This document shows positions 3,804 through 18,815 of a stretch of 64,000 nucleotides of DNA, one piece after another (within the stretch, counting starts at the first letter, position 1; every line of letters begins with the position of its first letter). The position numbers and the translations under genes were made by a program. This DNA comes from a virus: IMG/VR virus record IMGVR_UViG_3300043411_000715, positions 5,492 to 69,491 of that record; one strand, 5' to 3'. A model generated the notes under the pieces. It ran no database searches. It had not been told where the DNA came from and saw only the letters and a list, made by a program, of their open reading frames with translations.

Positions 3804-6800
3804 GTGGACATGACCAACCCCTGGGAACAAGACTGGAGCGGCGCCGCGCCGCAGGCGAACGACAAAGCCCCTTGGGAGCAGGATTGGGGCAAGCCGTCCG
3901 ATGTGACCAAAGGCGGCGTGCTGGATACCGTGCGCGACTACACCCTGGCGGGCCTGAGCAAGGCGGGCCAAGGCAGTATGCAGGCGATCGCCGGCATGGC
4001 CGATACCGTGTCGGCGCCGGTGGCCAAGACGCGCGCCATGCTGACGGGCGCGGCGGCGCTGGCCGATCGCTGGCTCCCGGGCGACATCAACCCAACGTTG
4101 CAGGAGTTGGCGCAGGATGACGCCGCCGCGGCCGAGGCCAAGGCCCAGCAGAACGCCCTGAACAACCCGCTGGCGCGTGGGACGATGGCGTTGCGCGACG
4201 CCGCGCGCGAGCGCGGTCAGATGCTTCAGGACTTCGACAAGGAGTTCAACCCGGAGTTGGTGCGCCAGGAAGGGGAGATGTCCAAGGCGCAGGGCTTTTG
4301 GGAGAACGCCAAGGCCATCAAGGACAACCCGCTGGCGTTCTATGGCAACCTGATGCAATCGGCCCCTGCCATGGCGACCGGCATCGGGATGAGCAGCGGG
4401 GCCGCGCGCGCTGCTGGCGCGCTCGGCAAGGTTGCCGGCATGAGCGACGAGGCCGCGCTGGCGCTGGCCACGCGCAGCGCTGGCGCTGTCGGCACAGCTT
4501 CGGAGGCGGCGCTGTCTGGCAGTCAGGCGCGCGAGGGCATCCGATCCAACATCCTTGCAACGCCACATGCGCAGCTTGCCGAAAATTCGCCGCGCTATCA
4601 GGAGTTGATGTCGCAACCCGGCATGACGCCAGCGCTGGCGCGCGACACGCTGGCCAACGAGGTGAGCACGTCGGCGTCCTTGCTGACATCGGCGGCAACC
4701 GCGCTGGGATCGACTGTCACCAACCGGGTGTTCGGCAACCTGGAAGCGCAAATGATCGCCGGCAACAAGTTGGGCGCCAAGGACGCGCTGCTCAAGATGC
4801 CGGCCAAGGAAACGGCCGAGGAATCCGCCCAGGGGATGGGCGAGGACTATGTGCAGCATCGGGCGATGTTGCCGGCCGACAAGACCAACGCCTACGACCC
4901 GGGTGGCTCGTTTGTGCAGAACGCTGCGGCCGGCCTGGCCATGTCCGGGCCTGGGTCGGTGGGCGGCTACGCGCGCCAGCAGTACAACGCCTCGCGCGGG
5001 CTGAACCCGGACGGAACCAAGCCGGCGACCCCGCCTGCCGCGCCGCCGGCCGACGTGGCCATGGACATTCGATTCCCTGATGGCACGGTATCCAAAGACC
5101 CCGCTGGCGGCGCGTTCGACTACGCCAGGTATGACCAGTACCGCACAGCGCTGGAATCTGGCGGCCGGGCCGATGCCAAGAACCCGAACAGCTCGGCCAC
5201 CGGCCTGCACCAGTTCACCGAGGGCACGTGGCTGGCGATGGTCGAAAAAGCCAAGCCGGCCTGGGCCGAAGGCCTGAGCCGCGACCAAATTTTGGCCGCG
5301 CGTACCGATGCTGGCAAGTCCACCGAAATGGTGCGCGTGCTGGACAGCGAGAATTCCGCGCGCCTGCGGGCGGCCGGGCAGCCGGTGAACGAGCACACCC
5401 TGTACGCGGCGCACCACTTCGGCTCCGGCCGGGCCATCGACTTTGCCAAGGCGGGCGACGACGCGTTGATGAGCAACATCTTGTCGCCGTCGCAGATGCG
5501 GGCGAACCCGTACCTGGAAGGTCTGACCAAGGCGCAGGCGATTGCCAACTGGGACAGCCGCGCGGGCGGCGCGGCGCCCGCGGCAAGCCCAGCGACAAAG
5601 CCGGCGGCCGAAAGCGACATCGCCAGCACCGAAACCGACGCCGCGGCCGAGGCCCTACAGCCGCGCGAGGCCGCGGACGTGGACAAGGTGTCCGCGCTGG
5701 ACAAGCAGGCCCAGGCGCTGCAAAGCCGCTGGAACGACCTGAACAAGCCCGAGTACGGCCCCGCCTTCGACACCGAGCGGGCCGATTTGCAAAGCCAGAT
5801 CGCGGCGCTGCGCGGCGAGCGTGACCAGCTGGCCCGCGACTGGCCCAAACCCGAGTACGGCCACCCCACCAGCTTCGCCACCGAATCCGGCGTGCGGCTG
5901 GATGGCCGCTATGCGCTCGTGGATGCCGATGCGCTGGTGACCAGCCACAACTCGCTGCTGAACAAGAACGGCGCCTACCCGCAGGAGCTGCAGCCGCGCG
6001 AGCGTGACCGCGCCGCCAGCGAAGCGCAGATTTCGGGCATCGTCAACAAACTTGACCCGGCCCGCCTGGGCATGAGTGCGGATGCCGCCACTGGCGCGCC
6101 GATCATCGGCGCCGACGGCGTGGTGGAGTCGGGCAACGCCCGCACGATCGCCCTGATGCGCGCCTACGAGGCCAACGGCCAGAAGGCGGCCGAGTACCGC
6201 CAGTTCCTGAGCGACAACGCCAACCAGTTCGGCCTGAGCGCTGAGCAGGTGGGGGCGCTGAAGAACCCGGTGCTGGTGCGCGTGCGCGACACACCCGTGG
6301 ATCGTGCCGAGTTCGCGCGCCAGGCCAACGCCAGCACGGTGGCCGCCATGTCGCCGTCGGAGCAGGCGCGCTCGGACGCGCAGCGCATCGACAACATGGA
6401 GGACTTGACGCCCAACGACGATGGCGACTTTGCCACCTCGCGCGACTTCATCCGCCGCTTCATGGCGCGCCTGCCGATGACCGAGCAGGCCGGCATGGTG
6501 GATTCGTCGGGCGCGCTGTCCACGGCGGGCTACGCGCGCGTGCGCAATGCCGTTCTGGCCAAGGCCTACGGCGATTCGCCGGTGTTGCAGCGCCTGACCG
6601 AAAGCATGGACGACAACCTGCGCAACATCAGCAAGGCGCTGGTGATGGCGGCGCCCGAGGTGGCAAAAATGCGCAGCGCGATCGACGCGGGCGCGCGCTT
6701 CGACGTGGACATCACCCCTGACCTGATGGCTGCCGTGACCGAGCTGTCGCGCCTGAAAGACGCCGGCACCAGCGTGCAGGACGCCATCGCGCAGGTCGGC

Positions 6801-9800
6801 ATGTTCGGCGAATACTCGACCGAGGTCCGCGATCTGCTGCAATTCCTGGCCGACAACATCCGCCGGCCGCGGCGCATTGCCGATTTCGTGCGCGCCTACT
6901 ATGCTGCGCTGGATCAGGCCGGCGACCCCAACCAAGGCTCGCTCCTGGGCGAGAAGCAGCCGCCCGCCAAGGGCGATCTGATGACTGCCGCGCGCCAGGA
7001 CGCGCAAGGAGAACTGCTCGATGGCAATCCCGCAACCGCAACCCGATCCGCAGCAGATGCAGCGGGCGATCAAGGCCGTGCGCAAGCTGGCCCTGAAGGT
7101 CGAGTCCAGCGCCCGGATGAAGCGCGCCGTGGCCATGGCGATCAAGTCGATGGGCCTGCCCGATCCGAAGCCGCAGTAGACAAGCAGCCGTCGCCGACCG
7201 GTCAATGGCGCACCTTCCCGCCCGACATGGGCAGCCTGGGCATTCCGCGCGCCGAGATGCCGCAGATCAAGGGCGAGCATCGGGGAGCATTCATCCAGTT
7301 CCTGAAGGGCCGCGGCATCGAGGCCAGCGAGCAGCACGAGGTTGACGCTGCCAAACTCAAGCCGACGCAGGCCGAGTTCTCCATGGCCAAGGTCGAGGGG
7401 TTCCTGAAGAAGGGGCTCGGATCGGGTCGCTCCGTTCTGGTGTCGTCCGATGGCTACGTGCTGGACGGACACCACCAGTGGATGGCGCACGCCGTCGCCA
7501 ACCAGGACATCCCGGTCATCACCCTGAACGCGCCGATGCGTGAGCTGCTGGCGGTGGCGCACGAGTTCCCGAGTGTGCAGCGCAGCGAAGGCGCGGCCAA
7601 CGACCCGAACGCCAGCCGGCGCGAAGCGGTGCAGGACTTCAAGGCCGCCATGGCCGATCTGGCCGACATCGCCACCAAGTGGCAGCGCGCGGCCCTGGTG
7701 CCCGAGAAGGACGCCGATCTGATGCCAGTGCTGGCGCGGCTGTTCGATGCCGCCATCCGCATCGTGGGCACCGATCTGAAGGCGGCCACGCGCTGGGTGA
7801 AGGACCAGCTGCGCGCGAACCCGGCAACCAAGAAGCTGGTCAACAAGGTCGAGCCGATGAGCTTTCGCAAGGCGGCCGAGCAGGCGCTGGAGGCCATGAG
7901 CGAGCCACCGGCCCAGGGCGGGCTGTTCGACAGCCCGGAGCAGGCCAGCGAGGCGGTGCAGGGCGACATGTTCGGTCTGCCCGAGGCGCGGCCCTATGCG
8001 CAGTTGAGCGCGGACGAAAAGGCGGCGTTTGATCGGCGGCAGGGCATTCGAGCGTCGGATCGTGGGCGCGTCAGCGCGGCGAACTACGACACGGCGCGCG
8101 ACAACTACAGCCCGCCGGCGGTCGAATCGTTCATGCCCAAGGAGGCGCTGGCGGCGGCCGACAAGGTGATTGCCGAGCATCAGCCGGAAAAACGAAATGA
8201 TGCAGCGCCTGCGCTTAGTGTCGAAGATCGCGCACGCGCCGAGTCTTTGCTGGCACCGGTTCTGGCGAAGGCGGCCGAAGCGAAGGCTGAGTTCGATCAG
8301 AAAGTGATCGACATCGCCCAGCGCGTCGGAGCGCTGGGGCAGCAGTTGGCGCCTCTCAAGGGCCTGAAGCGCGGTGCCGAGAAGCTGGTCGAGGAAAAAT
8401 TCGACGTCGGTGGCATGAAGGACTTGCTGCGTTCGACGATCGTGGTGCGCAGCTACGCCGATGCCCAGGCCGTGGTGGATGCGATCGAGAGTGAGTTCAA
8501 GCTGCTGCGCGCGCCCAAGAACCGCACGGGCGACGTGCCGCTACGCGCCCAAGGCGAGGATGTGGCTCCAGAAGACCCGGCGAAGTACGCCGGCTACAGC
8601 GACATCATGGTCAACGTGGTGATGCCCAACGGCACGATCGCGGAAATCCAGATCAACACCCCCGACATGTTGGCCGCCAAGGGCGCGCAGGGGCACAAGC
8701 TATATGAGGTGCTTCGCGCTGAACCGAAAGGTAGCGCGACGTTTGACGTGGTGAATGCGGCGAGCCTGGCGTTTTACGCCGAGGCGCGGGCTGCGGCGAG
8801 AAATTCCTCTTCGGTCATGCGAGACCAGTCGGCTGGCCAGAACCCGTTGGCGGGTTTGAGCCCTTCCCAGGGGGCTTTCTCGTCAAGCCAGAACCGCTTG
8901 CCGTCCGGGAACTCGACATACGACCGCTCGATGCCGTCGCCGTCGGCGCGATCCATGCCGAAAACGCAGCCGGGCGGGAATTTGTCAGGGACTTTCATGG
9001 GTTCCTCCGATGCCTCCATTGTACCCGGCCAGGGCGCGGGACGCAGCGCCACTAGTGCAGCCGCGCAACAAAGTCAAGCGCAAAATCGCGCCTCGCGCAA
9101 CAATTCGCAGAACGACCTGTTTGGAGCCCAAGATGCCAGTGCTGAAGGAAACCGTCCGCCGGGCGATGCAGGCGCAGGCGCCGCAGCTGTACCGGCAACT
9201 GGAGCGCAGCGGCAAGCTGGCCAGCTTCGTGAAGGAGCAGGCGGACGCGCTGAACGCGGAAATCCACGACGCGGTGATGCAGCGGATGATGGAGCCCGAC
9301 ATGCAGGCGCTGCCCGATCTGGAGCGGCCCAAGCGGGCCGCGGCGCTGGATCAGGCGCACACCGAAATCGCGCTCGCGCAGATGGCGTTCCCGTCAGCCG
9401 AGACATCCCCGCCAAGTCCGGGCGAAACTACAGCTTCTCAGGCCCCGACGACCTGAGCTACACCGGCTCGTGGGCGAAGAAGGCCGAGGCCAACGTCGCC
9501 GCCGTCGAGCTGCTGCGCGACCTCATCGCCGACAAGCGCCAGGCCACGCCCGATGAACAGGCCGTGCTGGCCAAGTTCGTCGGCTGGGGCGCGTCGGAGC
9601 TGGCCAACAACCTGTTCGGCGACAAGCTGAACGCTCCGGCCCAGGCGCTGCGCGAGTACGAATCAGCCAGCAAGGAAATGGACAAGCTGGGCCGTGGCTC
9701 GTTGTCCAAGGGCGGACAGTACCGCGGCCAATATGCCGACCCGGGCTATTACCAGGCGGTGGGCGTGTTGCGCGCGGCGGGCAAAGTCGCCCCGCACGAG

Positions 9801-12800
9801 TTCCCGCCGAGCGTGACGCGGGCGCAGTTGGACGCGGCCAAGCCGGACGCGGGCGTGCAACGCTGGATCGCCCTGCGCGATCGCCTGAAGGTGGCGATGA
9901 CGCCGACTGAGTGGAAGGAAGCCGCGCGCACCACGCAGTACGGCCACTACACCAGCAAGGCGGTGGTGCAGTCCATGTGGGCGGCCATGCAGCGCATGGG
10001 CTTCAAGGGCGGCGCGGTGCTGGAGCCGGGCGCCGGCATTGGCGTGTTCCCGGGCCTGATGCCGGCCGACGTGGCGGCCAATTCGACCTACACCGGCATC
10101 GAGTACGACACCTTCACCGGCAACGTGCTCAAGCAGCTGATGCCCGACGAGCGCATCGTCATCGACGGCTATCAGAACGTGGCGCTGCCCAAGGACTTCT
10201 ACGACGTGGCGATCGGCAACCCGCCGTTCGCCTCGATGTCGGTGCTGAACGACAACGAGTACAAGCGCAACGCCTTCAAGCTGCACGACTACTTCTTTGC
10301 CAAGACGATCGATCGCGTAAAGCCGGGCGGCCTGATGGCCTTCGTCACCAGCCGCTACACCATGGACAAGCTGGACGACAAGGCGCGGGCCTACCTGGCC
10401 GAGCGCGCCGATCTGGTGGGCGCCATCCGCATGCCGCAAACGGCGTTCAAGCAGAACGCGGGCACCGAGGTGGTCACCGACGTGCTGTTTCTGCGCAAGA
10501 AGGTGCCGGGCGAAGTCTTCGAGCACGCGCAGCCCTGGGCCAAGTCCACGCCGATGCAGGTGGACGGCGAGAGTTACCCGGTCAACGAGTATTTCCACGC
10601 GCACCCCGAGATGGTGTTGGGCACGCACAGCAGCCGGGGCAGCATGCGGGCGGCCAACGAATACACGGTGCTGCCGGGCGAGGGCGACATCGAAGCCGCT
10701 TTTGCCAAGGCTGCGGCCACCTTGCCGGCCGACGTGTACCGCGCCGAGATCGGCAGCGCCGCGCAGGCCGCGCAGGTGCGCGAGATCGACTTCAATCCGA
10801 CGGCGAAGAAGGAAGGCAACTTCTACGTCACCGACAAGGGCGTGCTGATGCAGCGCGAAGGCGGCGCCGGCCTGCGCGTCGAGGGCTTGAAGCCGGCCGA
10901 CGAGGCGATCGTGAAGGCCTATGTGCCCCTGCGCGACGCCGTGAAGCAGGCCCAGTATGACCAGCTCAATGGTGGGCCTTGGGAGCAGTCCCTGGCCGCG
11001 CTGCAGGCGGCCTACAAGGCGTTCACCGACAAGCACGGCCCGCTGTTGCAGGCCAAGGCCTACACCGTCACGACGACCGAAACCGACCCGGAAACCGGCG
11101 AGGCGGTGAAGGTCAAGGACACCCGCTATCGGCACCCGCTGGAGGCGTTGCTGCGCTCCGACCCGGACGCCTACCTGACGCTGGCGCTGGAGCGCTTCAA
11201 CGAGGAAACCGGCCAGATCACGACCACGGACGCGCTCACCAAGCGCGTGCTGGAGGCGCCTGTGCACGCGCGGGTCGAGACGGTGCACGACGCGCTGCTA
11301 ACCTCGCTCAATGACCTGGGGCGGGTGGACATCGCGGCCGTGGCCCATGCCGTCGGCCTGTCGCAGAAGGACGCGATCGAGGCCATGGGCACGGCGATCT
11401 ACCAAGACCCGAGCGCGGGCTGGCAGATGGCTGACGAATACCTGTCGGGCAACGTGAAGAAGAAGCTGGCCGAGGCGCGCGCCGCGGCGCAGTCGGACGC
11501 CCGCTACGAGCGCAACGTTGCCGCGCTGGAAGCGGCGCAGCCGGCCCCGAAGACCCCGGCCGACATCAACGTCGGGCTGGGCATGAACTGGGTTCCGGCG
11601 CCGTTCTACGAACAGTTCCTGCACGACCTGGCCGGCACGACCGTGAGGGTCAACTTCAACACGGCGACGCGCGAATGGTCGGTGGAGAAGGTCGATGGAC
11701 ACAAGACCCCGGCGGCCATTGCCGACTGGGGCACGGGTGACCGCGACATTGCCGATTTGCTGGTGCACGCGCTCAAGGGCACGCCGATCGACATCTCGCG
11801 CACCGAGATCGCCGACGGCAGCAAGAAGACCGTGAAGGATCACGCGGCCACCGAGGCCGCGAACGAAAAACTCAAGGCGCTGCGTGAGCGGTTTGAGGGC
11901 TGGGTGTGGGAGAACCCCGAGCGCTCGGACAAGCTGGTGCAGCTGTACAACGACAAGTTCAACACCACGGTGCCGCGCCGCTTCGACGGCCGCCATCTGA
12001 CGCTGCCGGGCACGACCAGCACGGTCACGGTGTTCGATCACGTCAAGCGCGGGGCCTGGCGCATCATCCAGTCGGGCAACACCTATCTGGCCCACGCCGT
12101 TGGATCGGGCAAGACCTGGCAAATGGTGATCAGCGCCATGGAGCAAAAGCGCCTGGGGCTGATCAAGAAGCCCATGTTCGTGGTGCCCAACCACATGCTG
12201 CAGCAGTTCGCGTCGGAGTGGATGCAGCTGTACCCGGCCGCGCGCCTGATGGTGGCCGACGAGGAGAACTTTCACACCAACAACCGCCGCCGCTTCGTGT
12301 CGCGCGTGGCGCTGTCCGACCTGGACGGGGTGATCATCACCCAGTCGGCATTCAAGATTCTTGACCTGGCCCCCGAGTTCAAGGCCAAGATCATCCAGGA
12401 GCAGCTTGACCAGCTGGAGGCCTCGCTGCACGATGCCGATCCGAGCCTCAAGCCGGGGCAGAAGTCGCGCGATCCGACGGTCAAGCAGATTCAGGCCAAG
12501 ATCGAGAAGCTGGAAACCCGGCTGCAGGCGGCCATGTCGAGCGAGGGCAAGGACAAGAACGTCATGTTCGACGAGCTGGGCGTGGACATGCTGTACGTCG
12601 ATGAGGCGCACGGCTACCGCAAGCTGGACTACGCCACCTCGCGCAAGGTCAAGGGCCTGAGCAGCGACGGCAGCGCCATGGCCTTGGACATGTACGCCAA
12701 GGTGCGCTACCTTGCCGAGAAGAACCCCAAGCGCAATCTGGTGATGGCCTCGGGAACGCCCATCACCAACACGATCGCCGAGCTGTACAGCCTGCAGCGC

Positions 12801-15800
12801 TTCATGGCGCCCGAAGGCCTGGAGGAGCGCGGGCTGACCGACTTCGATTCCTGGGCCGCGCAGTACGGCCGCGAGGTGACGGCGCTGGAGGCCGGGGCCG
12901 ATGGCAAGTATTCCCCGGTGACGCGCTTTCAGCGCTTCGTGAACGTGGGCGACCTGACGATGGCGTTTCGCCAGTTCGCCGACGTGCTGACGGCCGATGA
13001 CTTGGCCGCGATCCTGGGCGACAAGCGGCCCAAGGTGAACACGGGCGCGCGCCAGTTGCTGCTGACGCCCAAGACCGATGGCTACCACGAGTACCAGAAG
13101 GTGCTGGCCGAGCGCACCGAGGCCTCGCGCAAGTGGCGTCCCAGCAAGGACGAGCCCAACAACCCCGACCCGATCATTGCCATCATCGGCGACGGCCGCC
13201 TGGCGGCGATCGACACGCGCTTTGTGACCCCGGGCGCGGGAAACGACCCGCAGTCCAAACTCAATCAGATGATCGACAAGCTGGTCGAGCGCTACAAGGA
13301 AACCGCGGTCAACACCTACATCGACAAGAAGACCGGCCAGCCCGAGCCCTTGAAGGGCGGCACGATGATGGTGTTCTCGGACATCGGCTTTGGCGATGGC
13401 GTTCGCCTGAACCGTGGCTTCGACACGCGCGCCTGGGTGAACAAGCGCCTGGCCGAGGCCGGCGTGGATATGAAGCAGGTCGCCTACATGAGCGACTACA
13501 AGGCGTCGGCGGACAAGCTCAAGCTGTTTCGCGACGTGAACGCCGGCAAGATTCGCATCCTGTTCGGCACGTCGAAGAACATGGGCACCGGCGTGAACGC
13601 GCAGCAGCGCCTGACGACGATCTTCCACCTGGACCCGACCTGGTATCCGGCCGACATCGAGCAGCGCGAGGGCCGCGCCGTGCGCCAGGGCAACAAGAAC
13701 CCGTCGGTCGATCTGTACGCCTTTGCCACCAAGGGCACCTACGACCAGAACATGTGGCAGATGATCGCCCGCAAGGCCGCGTTCATCGACCAGATCATGA
13801 CGGGCGACGGCAGCATCAACGAGGTCGAGGACGTGGATTCCGAGTCGAACTACTCGGTGCTGGCGGCGATGGTGGCCGACGATCCGCGCGTGCTGGAGCT
13901 GGCCGGGCAGGAAAACGAGGTCAAGCGCCTGGAGCGCCTGTATCAGGCCCACGAGACGCAGCGCCAGTCGTTCATCGACCGCTACCGGCAGGCCGAGTGG
14001 GCCGTCCAGGGTGCCGAGAAGTCCCTTCCTGCCGCCGAGGCCGCGGCCAAGAAGGCGCGCGACCTGAGCGGGGACAACTTCACGGCCAAGGTGGGCAAAG
14101 CCACCATCACCGAGCGCGCGAAGTTCGGTGAGGCGTTGATCGGCCAACTCAACGAATTGTCCGGGCGCGTGGTGACCGAACCTACGCCCGTGGGTGAGAT
14201 TGGCGGCATGCCGCTGGTGTTCCACGGCTCCAAGGTGGGCTCCGCGTTCAGCGCCTGGATCGAGCTGCAGGCCGGCGAGCCGATGAATCTCGTGTCCAAC
14301 CCGGGCGAGTCCCCGGCCGGCATCGCCATGCGCGCACAAAACGCCGTGGCCGCGGTGGCGCGCCGCCCCGACAAGCTGCGCGAGCGCATCGCCGAGCAGA
14401 AGGCGGTCATGGAGTCGATCAAGGATCGGCGCCAGGCGCCGTTCCCGATGGCGCAAATGCTGACGGACGCCCGCGCGCAGGTGCAGAGCCTGAAAGCCAC
14501 GCTGGCCGCCGAGGGCGCCGCCCAGGCCGAGCCGGCCGCCAACGTCCCAACGATGTCGCGGGGCGTGGCCGAGCAGGACGGCGCAGGCGTGAAGCTGGCC
14601 GACGTGCAAGCCATGGCCGATCGCGTGGCCGCGGCGCTGCCCAAGCTGCCGGGCGTCGAGGTGCTGCAGTCCACCCAGGATGCACCGCCGGCCCTGCTTG
14701 CCTACCTGGAGCAGCAGGGCGCCATGGATGACACCGAGGGCGCTTTCCACGACGGCAGCATCTACCTGTTCGCGGGCAACCTGGCAAGCATGGAGCGCGC
14801 CGAGCACGTGCTGGCCACGCACGAGGCGGGGCACGCCGGCCTGGCCGCGATCCTGGGCGCTGACCGCGCGCGGGTGATGCAGTCGCTGCTGAACCTGAAC
14901 GACGACCTGAACCGCCGCGCAAACGCCGTGGCCAAGCGCCTGAAGGTGCCGGTCACCACGGCCGTCGAGGAACTGCTGGTCGATGTGCCGCCGGCCGATC
15001 TGGTCAAGCTCAAGGGCTGGCGCCGGGTGGCCCACAAGGTGCAGCAATGGCTGGCGCGTTCGGGCTTCACGGCGCTGGCCGCTCGCATGGGCCGCTGGCT
15101 GGAGAGTCGGCTGTCAGACCAGCAGAAGGCGGACCTGCTGGCGGCCGAGCTGATGACGGCCGCGCGCGAGCACCTGGCCGGACGCAAGCCGGCCGTGCGC
15201 AGCATGGCCGCGGACGCACAGCAGCAATCCCGGTGGCTGAACAAGCAGGCCGCCCAGCGGGGCTACGAGAATGCCGACGCCATGGCGCTGGCCGACTTCG
15301 ACGGCCTGGAATCGCTGATGGCGCAGTGGCGCGGCAAGAACCCGGCGGCGGCGATGCTGGCGCGTCGCATCGTGCGCGACGGCTACCGCACGGTGAACGA
15401 TTCGGTGATCCCGGAGACGCCCGAGTACGATGGCAACTTGACGGGCGATCTGGCGCAAGTGCCCGCAGGCAAGACTGTCAAGGCGGGGCCGATTCGCCTA
15501 CCTGTTGGAGTTGCTGAGGGCGCGCATCGCGGACTTGGCATCGAGCACATGGCCGACAACACCAGACGCGACGCCACGCGCATGCCGAAAAAACAAACGG
15601 GAGACCTGGCCGAAGACCTGGTGCGGCAGGCGGTGGAAGTGCTGCGCGGAGTGAAAGAGGTTCACTACGACGGCAGCAAGTTCATATTCCCGAACCCGCT
15701 GATGAAGCAAGCCGTGGTGGCTGTGTGGCGTGGCGATCACTATTCGATCACGACCGTGCGACCGTACCGCAACGCTCAGAACTTGTGGGGGAATCCGGAG

Positions 15801-18800
15801 AAGGTGGGGCGCCTAACCTTCCCCACCCGTGACGCTGAAGCCACGTCACCTTCAATTGCTGTCGCCAAGGAATCTTCGCTTCACCCTGACCGCTTCGGGC
15901 TAGAAGTAGCCTCCGAACGCTTCGATTTTAACACCGACAAGCCAAAACCAGCAACTCAGGTTGTTGTCAAAAAGAAGCGGTCGATCCAGGTTCCTGATGG
16001 CGCGCCGCGCCTGAGCCGCGCCGGGGCGTTGCCATCGGCCGCTGCCGGCCAGCAGGCCCAGTTGACCCCGGCCGATCGTGCTGAGGTGCTGATCCAGAAG
16101 TCCGCCCGCACCGCGCAACCGCTGGACGCGGTGGCTCAGGCAATCACGCGCGCCACGGGCGTGGAATGGGCCGCCAAGAAGGTGGGCAGCGTCATCGCGG
16201 GCGCTCTGAACCGCTACACGCCCGAGTCGGTCAAGGCCGGGCTGGTCAGTGACTACGGGCTCGATCCGCGCGTGCGCGACGAGCGTGTGCTGATGCAGGC
16301 GCGCCAGCAGGTGCAGCTGCGCAAGGCCGGCGAGATGATCGACAGTCTGGCCAGCCTGACGCGCGAGGAGTCGGCGGCGGCCTACCGCTGGATGAACGAA
16401 ACCGACCCCGACAAGATCATCCGTGGCATGGACGAGCTGCCCGAAGGCAGCGCGGAGAAGCTGCAGGAAATCCAGCGCGTGATCGACAAGTTGTCGCAAG
16501 AGGCGGTGGACCTGGGCCAGCTGGATCAGCGCAGCTACGAGCGCAACAAGTTCGCCTACCTGCACCGCAGCTATGCCAAGCATGTGCTGGAGCCCAAGGG
16601 CGCGAAGGCGGCGCGGGCGCGCACCGTGGCCATCCTGGGCAACCAGTACAAGGGCCGCGGTACGACCGAAACCGTCGCCATGTCCATGGTGCGACAGACG
16701 GCGCCTGAGTGGTGGGACGTGGCGCGCAAGGCCGGTAAGGCCGATCCCAACCTGATCGGCAAGAAGCTGACGCGCTACGATCGCCTGGCGCCAAGCGGTG
16801 CCGGCACGCAGACGCTGCCGGGCATGGATGGGCGCAGCGATGGCCGGGTGCTGGAAACCGTGTACCTGCCGGCCGATCGCGCGGCGCCGAAGCAGTATGC
16901 CGAGTGGCGCAAGGGGGCCACCTTCGAGGTGCGCGATGTCAAGCGCGGCGACTTGACGCTATGGCGCGACTGGACCGCCGATGAGCGCCAGAAGATGGGC
17001 GAGATCGACGAGGCGCGCTTTGCCATCGCCAAGACCCTGCACGGCATGATTCGTGATGTCGAGGTCGGTCGGTTCTTGGGCTGGCTGTCGCGCACGCAGG
17101 CCAAGCCCACCGAAGCCCAATTGCCGGCCGGCGCGTCCATCGTGGATGCGTCGGAAAGCCTGCTACGCGCCTTCAAGCCGGGCGAATGGGTGAAGGTGCC
17201 CGAGACCACCATCGCTGGTACGGCGGTGAAGAAGTACGGCGAGCTGGCCGGAAAGTACGTCGAAGGGCCGGTGTGGAACGAGGTGCGCCAGGCGCTGCAC
17301 ACGGCGCAGGGCTTCGGCAAGGTGTACGGGGCCATCCTCAACGCCTGGAAGCTGTCAAAAACTGCGTTGTCGCCCACGGTTCACATGAACAACATCATGT
17401 CGAACTTTGTGATGGCCGACTGGCACGACGTGACGGCCGGGCACGTGGCCAAGGCGCTGCGGATCATCATGGGCGCCCACGATTCGACCAGTGTGCAGGG
17501 GATCATCGGTCTGGCTGGCAAGGGGATGAAGGCCGCCGCCGGCATGGCTGACCAGGACGCCGCGCGCGAGCTGGTGAAGCGCTACAAGGATTCCGGCGCC
17601 GAACTGGGCTCGTTTGTGGTCAACGAAACCATGAAGGCGCAGGTCGATCCGTTGCTGGCCGCCATGGAAGCCGAGCTGCGGGCCGATCCGAACTCGACGG
17701 CCGCGCAGGTTGGCGTCATGTCGGCCCTGCAACTGTTGCGCCAAGGCGAGGTGGGCGCAGCGGCGAAGGCGGCGGCCGGCGCGCAGGGCGTGCGTCAGGT
17801 GATCCGCGAGGGCGGGAACATGATCGACCTGTACCAGTCGGAGGACTCGGTGTTTCGCCTGGCGTCCTGGCTCAAGGCCAAGGAGGAAGGCAAGACCGAC
17901 ATTGAGGCCGGTCGGATCGCTCGCCATTCGTTCATGGACTACAACATCAACGCGCCCTGGGTGCAGGCGGCGCGCAAGACGGTGCTGCCGTTCATCTCGT
18001 ACACCTACCGCGCCGCGCCGATGCTGGCCGACATCGCCATGAACAAGCCGCACAAGATTCTGAAGTTGATGGCCGTGGCCGGGGCGATCGACCTGCTTGG
18101 ATCGCTGCTGGCAGGCGGCGGCGCGGACGACGACAAGGTGCGCAAGCTGCTGCCCAAGGAGAAGGCCGGCGGCGTGTGGGGCATGGTGCCCAAGTTGATC
18201 CGCATGCCGTGGAACGACAACAACGGCTCACCGGTGTTCCTGGACATCCGGCGCTGGGTGCCTATGGGCGACGTGTTCGACCTTGGTCAAGGCCACGCAG
18301 CCCTGCCGATTCCGCCGTCCCTGATGCCGGGCGGCCCGCTGGCGTTGGCTGGCGAGTTGATCGCCAACAAGTCGCAGTTCACCGGCAAACCGATTGTGCT
18401 GGAAACCGACACGGCCGGGCAAAAGGCCGGCAAGGTGGCTGATTTCGTGTACAAGTGGGCGGCGCCGAACGTGCTGGGCCTGCCTGGCAGCTACGCCACC
18501 ACCGGTGTGATCGACGCCGCCAAGGGTCGCACGGACGCCTTCGGGCGCGAGCGCAGCGTGGCCCAGGCCATCGCCTCGTCGATTGGCGTGAAGGCGGCAA
18601 GCTACCCGCGCGACATCCTGGAGCGCAACATCATCCTGGAGTCCAAGGGCAAGCAGGCCGAGTTGGAGCGCGGCATGCGGCAACTGGCGCGGCAGCGGTC
18701 AACGAACGCGATCAGCGACGCCGAGTTCGAGCGGGCCATTGGGGTGGAGCAGGGCAAACTGCGCAAGCTGCGGGAGGAGACGCAGGAGCGGCTGGAGGCT

Positions 18801-18815
18801 GGTCGGACGCACTGA
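3804..18815 (+). CDS. darB: Giant (5,003 aa) DarB-like polyvalent protein: SLT/lysozyme-like, ddrB-ParB-like, ParB-like, RelA/SpoT-like NTase, N6-adenine MTase, SNF2 helicase, HExxH metallopeptidase-like, PBECR-like RNase, LPD38-like C-terminus
   Basis: ESGG..A.NPNSSATGLHQF (~5150); ESGNARTIAL (~6130); LDGHHQW (~7460); KDLLRSTIVV/GYSDIMVNV/AEIQINT (8420-8660); VLEPGAGIG and NPPF (10020, 10220); AHAVGSGKT and VDEAH (12090, 12600); HEAGH (14820); GLGIEHM (15530). Confidence 0.9.
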   Translation: MDMTNPWEQDWSGAAPQANDKAPWEQDWGKPSDVTKGGVLDTVRDYTLAGLSKAGQGSMQAIAGMADTVSAPVAKTRAMLTGAAALADRWLPGDINPTLQELAQDDAAAAEAKAQQNALNNPLARGTMALRDAARERGQMLQDFDKEFNPELVRQEGEMSKAQGFWENAKAIKDNPLAFYGNLMQSAPAMATGIGMSSGAARAAGALGKVAGMSDEAALALATRSAGAVGTASEAALSGSQAREGIRSNILATPHAQLAENSPRYQELMSQPGMTPALARDTLANEVSTSASLLTSAATALGSTVTNRVFGNLEAQMIAGNKLGAKDALLKMPAKETAEESAQGMGEDYVQHRAMLPADKTNAYDPGGSFVQNAAAGLAMSGPGSVGGYARQQYNASRGLNPDGTKPATPPAAPPADVAMDIRFPDGTVSKDPAGGAFDYARYDQYRTALESGGRADAKNPNSSATGLHQFTEGTWLAMVEKAKPAWAEGLSRDQILAARTDAGKSTEMVRVLDSENSARLRAAGQPVNEHTLYAAHHFGSGRAIDFAKAGDDALMSNILSPSQMRANPYLEGLTKAQAIANWDSRAGGAAPAASPATKPAAESDIASTETDAAAEALQPREAADVDKVSALDKQAQALQSRWNDLNKPEYGPAFDTERADLQSQIAALRGERDQLARDWPKPEYGHPTSFATESGVRLDGRYALVDADALVTSHNSLLNKNGAYPQELQPRERDRAASEAQISGIVNKLDPARLGMSADAATGAPIIGADGVVESGNARTIALMRAYEANGQKAAEYRQFLSDNANQFGLSAEQVGALKNPVLVRVRDTPVDRAEFARQANASTVAAMSPSEQARSDAQRIDNMEDLTPNDDGDFATSRDFIRRFMARLPMTEQAGMVDSSGALSTAGYARVRNAVLAKAYGDSPVLQRLTESMDDNLRNISKALVMAAPEVAKMRSAIDAGARFDVDITPDLMAAVTELSRLKDAGTSVQDAIAQVGMFGEYSTEVRDLLQFLADNIRRPRRIADFVRAYYAALDQAGDPNQGSLLGEKQPPAKGDLMTAARQDAQGELLDGNPATATRSAADAAGDQGRAQAGPEGRVQRPDEARRGHGDQVDGPARSEAAVDKQPSPTGQWRTFPPDMGSLGIPRAEMPQIKGEHRGAFIQFLKGRGIEASEQHEVDAAKLKPTQAEFSMAKVEGFLKKGLGSGRSVLVSSDGYVLDGHHQWMAHAVANQDIPVITLNAPMRELLAVAHEFPSVQRSEGAANDPNASRREAVQDFKAAMADLADIATKWQRAALVPEKDADLMPVLARLFDAAIRIVGTDLKAATRWVKDQLRANPATKKLVNKVEPMSFRKAAEQALEAMSEPPAQGGLFDSPEQASEAVQGDMFGLPEARPYAQLSADEKAAFDRRQGIRASDRGRVSAANYDTARDNYSPPAVESFMPKEALAAADKVIAEHQPEKRNDAAPALSVEDRARAESLLAPVLAKAAEAKAEFDQKVIDIAQRVGALGQQLAPLKGLKRGAEKLVEEKFDVGGMKDLLRSTIVVRSYADAQAVVDAIESEFKLLRAPKNRTGDVPLRAQGEDVAPEDPAKYAGYSDIMVNVVMPNGTIAEIQINTPDMLAAKGAQGHKLYEVLRAEPKGSATFDVVNAASLAFYAEARAAARNSSSVMRDQSAGQNPLAGLSPSQGAFSSSQNRLPSGNSTYDRSMPSPSARSMPKTQPGGNLSGTFMGSSDASIVPGQGAGRSATSAAAQQSQAQNRASRNNSQNDLFGAQDASAEGNRPPGDAGAGAAAVPATGAQRQAGQLREGAGGRAERGNPRRGDAADDGARHAGAARSGAAQAGRGAGSGAHRNRARADGVPVSRDIPAKSGRNYSFSGPDDLSYTGSWAKKAEANVAAVELLRDLIADKRQATPDEQAVLAKFVGWGASELANNLFGDKLNAPAQALREYESASKEMDKLGRGSLSKGGQYRGQYADPGYYQAVGVLRAAGKVAPHEFPPSVTRAQLDAAKPDAGVQRWIALRDRLKVAMTPTEWKEAARTTQYGHYTSKAVVQSMWAAMQRMGFKGGAVLEPGAGIGVFPGLMPADVAANSTYTGIEYDTFTGNVLKQLMPDERIVIDGYQNVALPKDFYDVAIGNPPFASMSVLNDNEYKRNAFKLHDYFFAKTIDRVKPGGLMAFVTSRYTMDKLDDKARAYLAERADLVGAIRMPQTAFKQNAGTEVVTDVLFLRKKVPGEVFEHAQPWAKSTPMQVDGESYPVNEYFHAHPEMVLGTHSSRGSMRAANEYTVLPGEGDIEAAFAKAAATLPADVYRAEIGSAAQAAQVREIDFNPTAKKEGNFYVTDKGVLMQREGGAGLRVEGLKPADEAIVKAYVPLRDAVKQAQYDQLNGGPWEQSLAALQAAYKAFTDKHGPLLQAKAYTVTTTETDPETGEAVKVKDTRYRHPLEALLRSDPDAYLTLALERFNEETGQITTTDALTKRVLEAPVHARVETVHDALLTSLNDLGRVDIAAVAHAVGLSQKDAIEAMGTAIYQDPSAGWQMADEYLSGNVKKKLAEARAAAQSDARYERNVAALEAAQPAPKTPADINVGLGMNWVPAPFYEQFLHDLAGTTVRVNFNTATREWSVEKVDGHKTPAAIADWGTGDRDIADLLVHALKGTPIDISRTEIADGSKKTVKDHAATEAANEKLKALRERFEGWVWENPERSDKLVQLYNDKFNTTVPRRFDGRHLTLPGTTSTVTVFDHVKRGAWRIIQSGNTYLAHAVGSGKTWQMVISAMEQKRLGLIKKPMFVVPNHMLQQFASEWMQLYPAARLMVADEENFHTNNRRRFVSRVALSDLDGVIITQSAFKILDLAPEFKAKIIQEQLDQLEASLHDADPSLKPGQKSRDPTVKQIQAKIEKLETRLQAAMSSEGKDKNVMFDELGVDMLYVDEAHGYRKLDYATSRKVKGLSSDGSAMALDMYAKVRYLAEKNPKRNLVMASGTPITNTIAELYSLQRFMAPEGLEERGLTDFDSWAAQYGREVTALEAGADGKYSPVTRFQRFVNVGDLTMAFRQFADVLTADDLAAILGDKRPKVNTGARQLLLTPKTDGYHEYQKVLAERTEASRKWRPSKDEPNNPDPIIAIIGDGRLAAIDTRFVTPGAGNDPQSKLNQMIDKLVERYKETAVNTYIDKKTGQPEPLKGGTMMVFSDIGFGDGVRLNRGFDTRAWVNKRLAEAGVDMKQVAYMSDYKASADKLKLFRDVNAGKIRILFGTSKNMGTGVNAQQRLTTIFHLDPTWYPADIEQREGRAVRQGNKNPSVDLYAFATKGTYDQNMWQMIARKAAFIDQIMTGDGSINEVEDVDSESNYSVLAAMVADDPRVLELAGQENEVKRLERLYQAHETQRQSFIDRYRQAEWAVQGAEKSLPAAEAAAKKARDLSGDNFTAKVGKATITERAKFGEALIGQLNELSGRVVTEPTPVGEIGGMPLVFHGSKVGSAFSAWIELQAGEPMNLVSNPGESPAGIAMRAQNAVAAVARRPDKLRERIAEQKAVMESIKDRRQAPFPMAQMLTDARAQVQSLKATLAAEGAAQAEPAANVPTMSRGVAEQDGAGVKLADVQAMADRVAAALPKLPGVEVLQSTQDAPPALLAYLEQQGAMDDTEGAFHDGSIYLFAGNLASMERAEHVLATHEAGHAGLAAILGADRARVMQSLLNLNDDLNRRANAVAKRLKVPVTTAVEELLVDVPPADLVKLKGWRRVAHKVQQWLARSGFTALAARMGRWLESRLSDQQKADLLAAELMTAAREHLAGRKPAVRSMAADAQQQSRWLNKQAAQRGYENADAMALADFDGLESLMAQWRGKNPAAAMLARRIVRDGYRTVNDSVIPETPEYDGNLTGDLAQVPAGKTVKAGPIRLPVGVAEGAHRGLGIEHMADNTRRDATRMPKKQTGDLAEDLVRQAVEVLRGVKEVHYDGSKFIFPNPLMKQAVVAVWRGDHYSITTVRPYRNAQNLWGNPEKVGRLTFPTRDAEATSPSIAVAKESSLHPDRFGLEVASERFDFNTDKPKPATQVVVKKKRSIQVPDGAPRLSRAGALPSAAAGQQAQLTPADRAEVLIQKSARTAQPLDAVAQAITRATGVEWAAKKVGSVIAGALNRYTPESVKAGLVSDYGLDPRVRDERVLMQARQQVQLRKAGEMIDSLASLTREESAAAYRWMNETDPDKIIRGMDELPEGSAEKLQEIQRVIDKLSQEAVDLGQLDQRSYERNKFAYLHRSYAKHVLEPKGAKAARARTVAILGNQYKGRGTTETVAMSMVRQTAPEWWDVARKAGKADPNLIGKKLTRYDRLAPSGAGTQTLPGMDGRSDGRVLETVYLPADRAAPKQYAEWRKGATFEVRDVKRGDLTLWRDWTADERQKMGEIDEARFAIAKTLHGMIRDVEVGRFLGWLSRTQAKPTEAQLPAGASIVDASESLLRAFKPGEWVKVPETTIAGTAVKKYGELAGKYVEGPVWNEVRQALHTAQGFGKVYGAILNAWKLSKTALSPTVHMNNIMSNFVMADWHDVTAGHVAKALRIIMGAHDSTSVQGIIGLAGKGMKAAAGMADQDAARELVKRYKDSGAELGSFVVNETMKAQVDPLLAAMEAELRADPNSTAAQVGVMSALQLLRQGEVGAAAKAAAGAQGVRQVIREGGNMIDLYQSEDSVFRLASWLKAKEEGKTDIEAGRIARHSFMDYNINAPWVQAARKTVLPFISYTYRAAPMLADIAMNKPHKILKLMAVAGAIDLLGSLLAGGGADDDKVRKLLPKEKAGGVWGMVPKLIRMPWNDNNGSPVFLDIRRWVPMGDVFDLGQGHAALPIPPSLMPGGPLALAGELIANKSQFTGKPIVLETDTAGQKAGKVADFVYKWAAPNVLGLPGSYATTGVIDAAKGRTDAFGRERSVAQAIASSIGVKAASYPRDILERNIILESKGKQAELERGMRQLARQRSTNAISDAEFERAIGVEQGKLRKLREETQERLEAGRTH
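7021..7179 (+). CDS. Nested 52-aa ORF in the +1 frame of the giant gene (MAIPQPQPDPQQMQRAIKAVRKLALKVESSARMKRAVAMAIKSMGLPDPKPQ)
   Basis: AAGGAG shortly upstream of ATG 7021; codons mostly G/C-ending in this frame while the giant frame reads as an atypical linker; too short for the ORF track. Confidence 0.6.
   Translation: MAIPQPQPDPQQMQRAIKAVRKLALKVESSARMKRAVAMAIKSMGLPDPKPQ
8774..8998 (-). CDS. Nested antisense 74-aa protein (MKVPDKFPPGCVFGMD...EEEFLAAARASA) after the RelA/SpoT-like domain
   Basis: GGAGGA RBS (9003-9008) and TACAAT -10 (9018-9023) on the minus strand; globular aromatic/acidic composition; giant frame is Ser-rich here. Confidence 0.7.
   Translation of the reverse strand: MKVPDKFPPGCVFGMDRADGDGIERSYVEFPDGKRFWLDEKAPWEGLKPANGFWPADWSRMTEEEFLAAARASA
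9133..9456 (+). CDS. Nested 107-aa +1-frame protein, TnpV-reminiscent helical protein
   Basis: GGAG at 9123-9126; GC3-rich codons in this frame; 'PQLYRQLERSGKLASFV' resembles TnpV by eye; giant frame is R/G/A low-complexity here. Confidence 0.7.
   Translation: MPVLKETVRRAMQAQAPQLYRQLERSGKLASFVKEQADALNAEIHDAVMQRMMEPDMQALPDLERPKRAAALDQAHTEIALAQMAFPSAETSPPSPGETTASQAPTT
15797..15918 (-). ncRNA. Candidate antisense structured small RNA downstream of the PBECR-like domain
   Basis: Minus-strand TTGCTG-N18-TAAAAT with extended TG (15954-15925), three hairpins, last one GGTGGGG/CCCCACC; no evident ORF. Confidence 0.4.

Follow-up and report, generated by a model that had tools for sequence, protein, structure and literature searches.

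Does a 15-kb viral gene carry further genes, with start signals of their own, inside the linkers between its protein domains? The question is raised by a giant DarB-like gene in IMG/VR virus record IMGVR_UViG_3300043411_000715, a sequence of 69,491 bp rated 100% complete. We analyzed its bases 5492–69491, a stretch of 64,000 nucleotides with ~66% guanine plus cytosine (GC), hereafter called the window; coordinates refer to the window unless another locus is named. The original prediction held that the 15-kb frame stays open and nevertheless carries independent expression signals at four places, three of them open reading frames (ORFs) and the fourth an antisense promoter with hairpins, and that the neighboring domains were acquired together with a cognate inhibitor or regulator encoded in the linker. 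The long frame was open as claimed, running without a stop from 3804 to 18815 on the plus strand (5003 amino acids), and the three ORFs were present at exactly the predicted positions, 7021–7179 (plus strand), 8998–8774 (minus strand), and 9133–9456 (plus strand). They are n1 (52 amino acids, +1 frame, a small helical protein), n2 (74 amino acids plus stop, a candidate immunity protein for the adjoining RelA/SpoT-like domain D4 on the basis of comparison and a predicted complex), and n3 (107 amino acids, +1 frame, a helical protein, probably of the TnpV family by comparison and family profile). Our analysis indicates that n1, n2, and n3 are very probably real, selected nested genes. As an explanation of the whole, we favor, with moderate confidence, dual-coding linkers with nested genes in which n2 serves as the immunity protein of D4.

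The separate start signals claimed for the three ORFs were present. A Shine–Dalgarno (SD)-like motif precedes each start: AAGGAG at 7006–7011, identified by motif search 9 nucleotides upstream of the n1 start; GGAGG at 9004–9008 on the minus strand for n2; and GGAG at 9123–9126 for n3. The claimed shift of codon bias to the nested frame was seen for n1 and n3 and could not be upheld for n2. The giant frame has an average GC content of 0.67/0.47/0.86 at codon positions 1/2/3. At ~6984–7223 and ~9054–9443, the signal at the third position (GC3) shifts from the giant frame to the +1 frame, with nested position 3 reaching 0.92–0.94. Over the n1 and n3 stretches, the giant frame encodes low-complexity sequence rich in G/A/R/D/Q; the nested frames resemble ordinary proteins. 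The n2 region gave ambiguous values (0.60/0.70/0.64); the GC3 test says nothing on n2 because the two strands share their third codon positions. ORFs of at least 40 amino acids numbered 60 between 6900 and 16000, n1–n3 being three among them, and matches in relatives were also common among the 218 off-frame ORFs within the giant gene. Off-frame "homology" alone was dropped as proof of nested genes, as off-frame ORFs in conserved domains match relatives too. That is, ORF presence and plain similarity prove nothing; therefore, comparative tests were used.

The comparative set consisted of 143 related loci, fetched with an alignment (A1) of D2 as the search anchor; D2 is a main-frame ParB-like nuclease-type domain at 7227–7598 (plus strand), and its family name rests on our reading of a DGHHQW motif. 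Iterated profile searches (jackhmmer) over the six-frame ORFs of these loci yielded homologs, window included, in 29 loci for n1, 23 for n2, and 23 for n3. Without exception, the copies were enclosed by the largest ORF of the locus, and the relative frame was constant throughout, +1 for n1 and n3 and wobble-matched antisense for n2. The ribosome-binding motifs were also conserved among homologs, as the original prediction would have it: an aligned ATG with an SD-like motif (defined as a 4-mer 3–12 nucleotides upstream) was found in 28/29 n1, 22/23 n2, and 20/22 n3 loci, near-universal against a background of 11.3% (4202/37162) when every ATG triplet of the giant ORFs is counted. The start chosen for n2 coincided with the model-predicted start in 23/23 loci. 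Per-site BLOSUM scores were higher in the nested than in the main frame (n1, 2.15 vs 1.04; n3, 1.89 vs 1.25; n2, 2.05 vs 1.69). Among phylogenetically independent pairs, substitutions that altered only the main-frame protein were more numerous than those that altered only the nested one, at 105:47 for n1, 39:23 for n2, and 98:80 for n3. GC was maximal at nested position 3 in 26/26 n1, 20/20 n3, and 14/20 n2 sequences. Selection on the nested frames is visible in their better conservation, with an asymmetry that is small or weak for n2 and n3.

The giant frame was then assessed by synonymous resampling, in which the nested protein is held fixed and its codons are redrawn from the usage of each locus. 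No stop interrupted the giant frame over n1 in any of 26 distinct sequences or over n3 in any of 20, against a chance of 0.16 and 0.05 per sequence, respectively, for an open frame; this indicates that both the giant and the nested frame are under selection in these two stretches. The segments flanking each nested gene were in one common frame in all relatives. In addition, variant contigs from wastewater carried paired +1/−1 one-base indels a few bases apart that kept the frames (7069/7074, 7186/7191, and 9127–9132). The stretch is contained in 20 wastewater runs, 3 of which are recorded as RNA. Because of the open frames, the shared flanking frame, and the paired indels, we regard the n1 and n3 stretches as dual-coding, and as neither a chain of separate genes nor relics. 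Taken together, n1–n3 show what is expected of overlapping genes: two open frames, selection on both (weak for n2), and their own initiation signals.

Several points weigh against this reading. The choice among candidate starts favored those with an SD motif, and the alignments behind the BLOSUM comparison were guided by the nested frame. The substitution asymmetry of n3 (98 to 80) is weak, and the conservation asymmetry of n2 is small, its two frames sharing wobble positions; main-frame openness is uninformative for n2, with a chance value of 0.95. Over the last ~20 residues of n3, the giant frame already encodes the conserved beginning of the methylase module; part of the n3 conservation is therefore a by-product of a conserved main-frame motif. 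The four wastewater runs that were examined are assembled contigs, which show presence and variants and cannot show transcription, strand, or ends.

What would such genes do? The nested ORFs lie in inter-domain linkers and co-occur with an adjacent domain, as predicted. The ddrB-ParB domain D1 (5889–6287, plus strand, amino acids 696–828; Pfam PF18763, 126.6 bits against a cut-off of 27.6) precedes n1 wherever n1 occurs (29/29 loci), even in L091 with its different order, D2-D1-n1; loci with a ddrB-ParB segment number 38 in total. The 3′ end of n2 lies 0–33 nucleotides from the end of D4 in 21/23 D4 loci; one of the two loci without an adjoining n2 is cut at a contig end, and the other is a weak partial match. 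The D4-n2-n3 block stands before D2, rather than after D3, in L021, L023, and L024. As was claimed for the domain boundary of n3, this gene or a related TnpV-like ORF lies ahead of the DarB-like methylase–helicase module, D5, which the Pfam matches place at 9457–13700 (plus strand, end approximate). Four loci (L018, L020, L083, and L115) have n3 without n2 at this place, and in six further loci the module is preceded by another +1-frame family, which hhalign relates to n3 with a probability of 93%. The n2–D4 pair shows the adjacency and co-occurrence of a toxin–immunity pair, with n2 standing alone in two loci.

D4 (8085–8777, plus strand) is a Tas1-like, RelA/SpoT-like nucleotidyltransferase domain by profile comparison with the Protein Data Bank (PDB) and by Pfam RelA_SpoT. 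Its closest solved relative is the toxin Tas1 (6ox6_A, expect value (E) 3.9e-14), and RelA_SpoT (PF04607) matched 15/17 D4 members at E up to 0.1 (best 8.8e-07). The n2 product was modeled as five strands and one helix, with a predicted local distance difference test (pLDDT) score of 81.7 and a predicted template-modeling score of 0.71. Pfam gave no match for the members of the n2 family, and the 79 homologous clusters of n2 are nameless or called "hypothetical protein" at their sources. No sequence relative of n2 was found in the PDB; a fold search with the n2 model returned nothing at E up to 0.001 against the PDB and BFVD, and an Atlas fold search gave no usable match. When D4 and n2 were predicted as a complex, the score was 0.80 (runs 0.58, 0.80, and 0.90), against 0.02 for the best of three controls, with a contact agreement of at least 81% and a partner pLDDT of at least 81 in the runs. 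The mark used for such scores is reached by 58/80 solved complexes and 2/110 mismatched pairs, and it is approximate here, custom alignments having been used. Since n2 has no sequence or fold match in the PDB, it is unlikely that the score was earned by likeness to a solved complex. Conserved D4 columns numbered 39, and 14 of these were among the 39 of 243 residues that form the interface (Fisher p 0.0007). The D4 interface residues include K100, R104, K108, R124, Y179, Q197, K207, G211, H212, K213, Y215, E216, and R219, which, going by the RelA/SpoT motifs, we take to be residues of the catalytic cleft.

Upstream of n2, alignment of the corresponding regions revealed a −10-like hexamer, TACAAT (9018–9023, minus strand). 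Read from an alignment of 20 distinct sequences, TAnnnT occurs ~19 nucleotides before the ATG in 20/20 and is preceded by TGn in 15/20; a general promoter scan had missed this −10 because it also demands a −35. Short inverted repeats lie just upstream of it (9024–9045 in the window, GGCGC..GCGCC; ATCCG..CGGAT types in relatives, read from the alignment) and could be an operator. Judging from these signals and from the modeled complex, n2 is probably a separately transcribed gene, the product of which blocks the neighboring toxin-type domain. The narrower statement that n2 neutralizes D4 is, in our view, slightly more likely than not. Whether n2 would protect lysogens, producing cells, or both is a matter of inference.

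The idea that n2 is a cognate inhibitor, as originally claimed, gains from its Tas1-like neighbor and from a predicted complex that covers conserved catalytic residues, and it loses by the two loci in which n2 is present without D4 (L017, 10687–10899; L106, 10345–10602). Three further difficulties attach to it. First, the window copy of D4 scores 20.9 bits against the RelA_SpoT gathering cut-off of 27 (E 0.00044): as judged from sequence profiles, the homology of D4 to RelA/SpoT is supported and formal PF04607 membership of this copy is not. Second, the n2–D4 complex is a model, and the toxicity of D4 is predicted from likeness. Third, antisense transcription of n2 would oppose late transcription of the giant gene, which fits lysogeny better than the supply of an antidote during virion production. 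The segments upstream of n2 in L017 and L106 gave no match in Pfam. Orphan immunity genes occur at times, and n2 in these two loci, where a RelA/SpoT-like domain is absent, resembles one.

On the explanation that we favor, the 15-kb gene would encode one giant virion-type polyvalent protein with three dual-coding inter-domain linkers. Each linker would contain an older small gene that retains a separate start codon and ribosome-binding site along with a codon bias of its own, and the giant frame would pass through these genes as low-complexity linker. Because n1 and n3 are on the same strand and in the +1 frame, they are presumably translated by internal initiation on the giant-gene mRNA; transcription of the antisense n2 would start from a conserved −10 promoter of its own, situated in the spacer between n2 and n3. 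As the putative immunity protein, n2 is modeled as capping the catalytic cleft of the adjoining Tas1-like RelA/SpoT domain, which is of the toxic alarmone-synthetase type. Phage-carrying cells would be protected by n2, and the injected giant protein would act in naive cells, the antidote having been left behind at packaging. In the same scheme, n3 would be a partner of the methylase–helicase module and n1 a partner of the ddrB-ParB domain. A likely origin would be the fusion of neighboring effector genes across their small companion genes. At a GC3 of ~0.9, few stops occur in the frame that lags a real gene by one base. The broad form of this scheme, in which effector genes fused across their companions, the companions live on as overprinted genes in the +1 or wobble-matched antisense frame, and every linker gene is a cognate neutralizer or handler (n1 of ddrB-ParB, n2 of the Tas1-like synthetase, and n3/TnpV of the methylase–helicase), strikes us as doubtful.

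The strongest competitor accepts that the nested genes are real and expressed and assigns them roles other than that of antidotes: assembly or packaging helpers, regulators, or moron-like lysogeny genes (e.g., for superinfection exclusion) lodged in tolerant linkers. We consider this possible, although distinctly less probable. It suits n3, as the TnpV family has no known inhibitor role, and n1, for which there is only a weak HEAT-repeat likeness in 7/26 members. The promoter of n2 on the opposite strand is moron-like, and the persistence of n2 without D4 in two loci points the same way. The P1 Dar system also needs several small packaging helper proteins. The available part of PMC9144972 names DdrA, DdrB, Hdf, and Ulx as required in that system; in the P1 record, Ulx is located downstream of darB, and not upstream of it. 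However, n2 is predicted to sit on the catalytic face of D4 (0.80 vs 0.02), which it adjoins in 21/23 loci, and each nested gene keeps its fixed domain neighbor even where the domain order differs.

The other alternatives fare much worse. The nested ORFs could be relics of small genes swallowed by fusion and now neither expressed nor selected. The nested codon bias does look older than that of the giant frame in these stretches, TnpV proteins are known as free-standing genes, and the records of Bcep22 and UAM5 list no nested gene. Against this, 20–29 loci whose flanking domains are only 40–60% identical keep the ORFs unbroken, complete with ATG and SD motif at the aligned position; the nested frame is the better conserved one, and n2 models as a confident fold. 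We therefore hold the relic explanation to be very improbable. Still less credible is the absence of any giant protein, with a row of separate genes whose long frame is open owing to the rarity of stops at high GC. At 66% GC, opposite-strand off-frame ORFs of 841–1249 amino acids do occur within the giant gene. However, no segment is ended by a stop in any relative, the flanks of the nested genes always share one frame, the main frame is open in 26/26 (n1) and 20/20 (n3) sequences against the chance values given above, and the paired indels restore the frame; moreover, a related DarB-like protein is among the JC1 virion proteins identified by mass spectrometry, according to the available part of PMC9144972. 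The weakest explanation, programmed +1 frameshifting from the giant frame into n1 and n3 to give truncated isoforms, draws on their shared +1 frame, their terminal stops, and a +1 frame that is open for 36 nucleotides before the n1 ATG and 273 before the n3 ATG, and is highly improbable given that the aligned starts retain their ATG and SD, that no conserved slippery site was seen (no search aimed at one having been made), and that the antisense n2 is left unexplained.

Returning to the nested genes themselves, Pfam and PHROGs searches with the window n1, n2, and n3 proteins returned nothing significant. Family profiles were more informative for n3: 14/19 members matched Pfam TnpV (PF14198) at E up to 0.01 (best 4.1e-08), and the window n3 reaches TnpV through the family profile, without a direct Pfam match. 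Homologs of n3 formed 45 protein clusters in a large collection, one of them named "TnpV protein" by NCBI. The n3 model (pLDDT 78.5) is helical and confident over residues 1–88, with a disordered tail in which residues 90–106 fall below 50; a fold search with this model found nothing in the PDB at E up to 0.001. The likeness of n1 members is to the HEAT_2 family. Single-sequence tblastn with n2 and n3 found nothing among GenBank phages. Profile searches detected n3-like ORFs in the +1 frame within Bcep22 gp75 (L146, 17248–17658; hmmsearch E 3.6e-15) and within the giant gene of UAM5 (L145, 11405–11797; hmmsearch E 3e-10), and found neither n1 nor n2 in these two phages. Both n3-like ORFs are unannotated.

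In a scan of 104 giant ORFs for displaced GC3, the two largest families were n1 and n3. The same scan detected further candidate families whose sequences resemble proteins: a 129-amino acid family after ddrB-ParB in five "D2-D1" loci without n1, a family of 69–87 amino acids before D2 in nine loci, and a family of 60–76 amino acids in ten loci, each in the +1 frame; all ORFs of the 15 largest displaced-GC3 families were in this frame. This agrees with the arithmetic of the +1 frame, in which the first position of the giant frame falls on the GC-rich third position of the nested gene, making giant-frame stops rarer. Examples of family ORFs with displaced GC3 are L025 11157–11480, L039 6365–6754, L028 9384–9647, and L019 14793–15023. 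Pfam gave no match for four representatives of the other displaced-frame families.

Should the nested genes be expressed, published phage genomes of this type would be under-annotated, as gene callers do not report genes within genes. Their expression would also explain how a toxin-type domain can be part of a structural protein without poisoning the phage's own cell, and it would suggest a route to giant multi-domain proteins by fusion across small genes, through a nearly stop-free frame kept open by GC. If the broad scheme were true, it would amount to a general "effector with embedded antidote" architecture, to which at least four more families of nested ORFs in related giant genes would belong, and if every linker gene were a neutralizer or handler, this would be the first function for the TnpV family. 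The three families also provide a natural set for studies of dual-coding constraint, with 20–29 divergent copies each in one fixed frame relation.

As to the host gene, a Pfam scan of the 5003-amino acid protein returned, besides ddrB-ParB, matches to an Eco57I-type methylase (27.6 bits, cut-off 25.3), ResIII, Helicase_C (25.4 bits, cut-off 23.5), and SNF2-related, the last slightly below its cut-off (24.6 bits, cut-off 24.9). Within D5, the Eco57I-type methylase lies at 10194–10412, with SNF2/Helicase_C farther along. By its domain content, the 15-kb ORF is a DarB-like polyvalent protein gene, predicted to join methylase, helicase, and further effector domains in one polypeptide, and by comparison with gp69 of JC1, which is found in virions, the giant protein may be packaged and injected. 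Relatives of the gene are uninterrupted ORFs of 4500–5200 amino acids wherever the contig permits. They belong to phages and prophages of ~55–70 kb, mainly of Burkholderiales, Pseudomonas, and other Proteobacteria. One of them, a prophage of Hydrogenophaga intermedia S1 (L084), carries n1, D4, and n2. The closest named phage is Ralstonia phage UAM5 (genus Gervaisevirus); a near-identity DNA search with the giant gene matched only 622 bp in UAM5 and 64 bp in two Methylocella plasmids.

The fourth site, for which an antisense promoter and hairpins had been claimed at 15954–15797 on the minus strand, did not hold up. A sigma-70 promoter scan requiring a −35 found no match there, the folding energy was no better than that of shuffled sequences (z −0.19 and +0.21), and an Rfam search of the element gave no match. 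No counterpart of the segment ~15500–16000 was found in any fetched locus searched, and homology to relatives returns near 16010–16070, at the start of the shared C-terminal module. An extended −10-like motif, TGTTAAAAT, is present at 15933–15925 on the minus strand; TGNTANNNT has 11 matches in the 64 kb, including TGTTAAAAT, and shuffles give 18.7. The site is thus a non-conserved linker with one extended −10-like motif and local hairpins, unsupported as functional. The module at 15400–16000, before the shared C-terminal region, is the one labeled PBECR-like in the original prediction; it lacks a counterpart in the fetched loci, its GC3 signal is weaker, and it may have been acquired recently.

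We compared the locus with known systems. Polyvalent proteins (Iyer et al. 2017, PMC5512222), P1 DarB, and Bcep22 gp75 are, like the window protein, giant and multi-domain, with ddrB-ParB, methylase, SNF2-type helicase, and RelA/SpoT domains; the accessible part of that paper lists RelA/SpoT among the domains of polyvalent proteins. In the same part, "overlapping", "TnpV", "alternative reading", and "immunity protein" do not occur, and "nested" and "embedded" are used only for hairpin structure and peptidase domains. The JC1 report, in its available part (PMC9144972), mentions two predicted opposite-strand terminators inside the DarB-like gene and describes no nested genes there. In line with the original prediction, which knew of no account of this layout, a full-text literature search with coverage mostly outside subscription journals brought up no report of nested genes within polyvalent or DarB-like genes. 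An annotated ORF within a Dar-system gene is known from P1, where iddB lies on the opposite strand inside ddrB, a gene that carries the ddrB-type domain (L147, 26577–26975). It resembles n1–n3 in this respect; however, it has no similarity to them, and its sequence looks like an off-frame translation. No relatives of n1–n3 were found in the first 48 kb of P1.

Tas1 is a (p)ppApp-synthetase toxin and Tis1 its immunity protein. Like Tas1–Tis1 and the toxin–antitoxin pairs of toxic small alarmone synthetases, the locus joins a domain whose closest solved relative is Tas1 to a small adjacent gene, the product of which is predicted to cover the catalytic cleft. However, n2 resembles no PDB chain in sequence or fold, and so does not resemble Tis1; here, the toxin would be a domain of a giant virion-type protein, and n2 is antisense in a linker instead of downstream and co-directional. 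TnpV (PF14198) is a small transposon-encoded protein matched by 14/19 members of the n3 family, whereas n3 is nested in a phage gene. Finally, Rz1 inside Rz, an arrangement that the Bcep22 record annotates and that is described for JC1 in the available part of PMC9144972, is like n1 and n3 a whole small gene in the +1 frame of a larger one. The window differs in that a single host gene contains three nested genes, including an antisense one; each lies in an inter-domain linker and is tied to a neighboring domain, and the host frame reads there as low-complexity linker. Overlapping genes and toxin–immunity pairs are known kinds, and it is their arrangement here that appears to be new.

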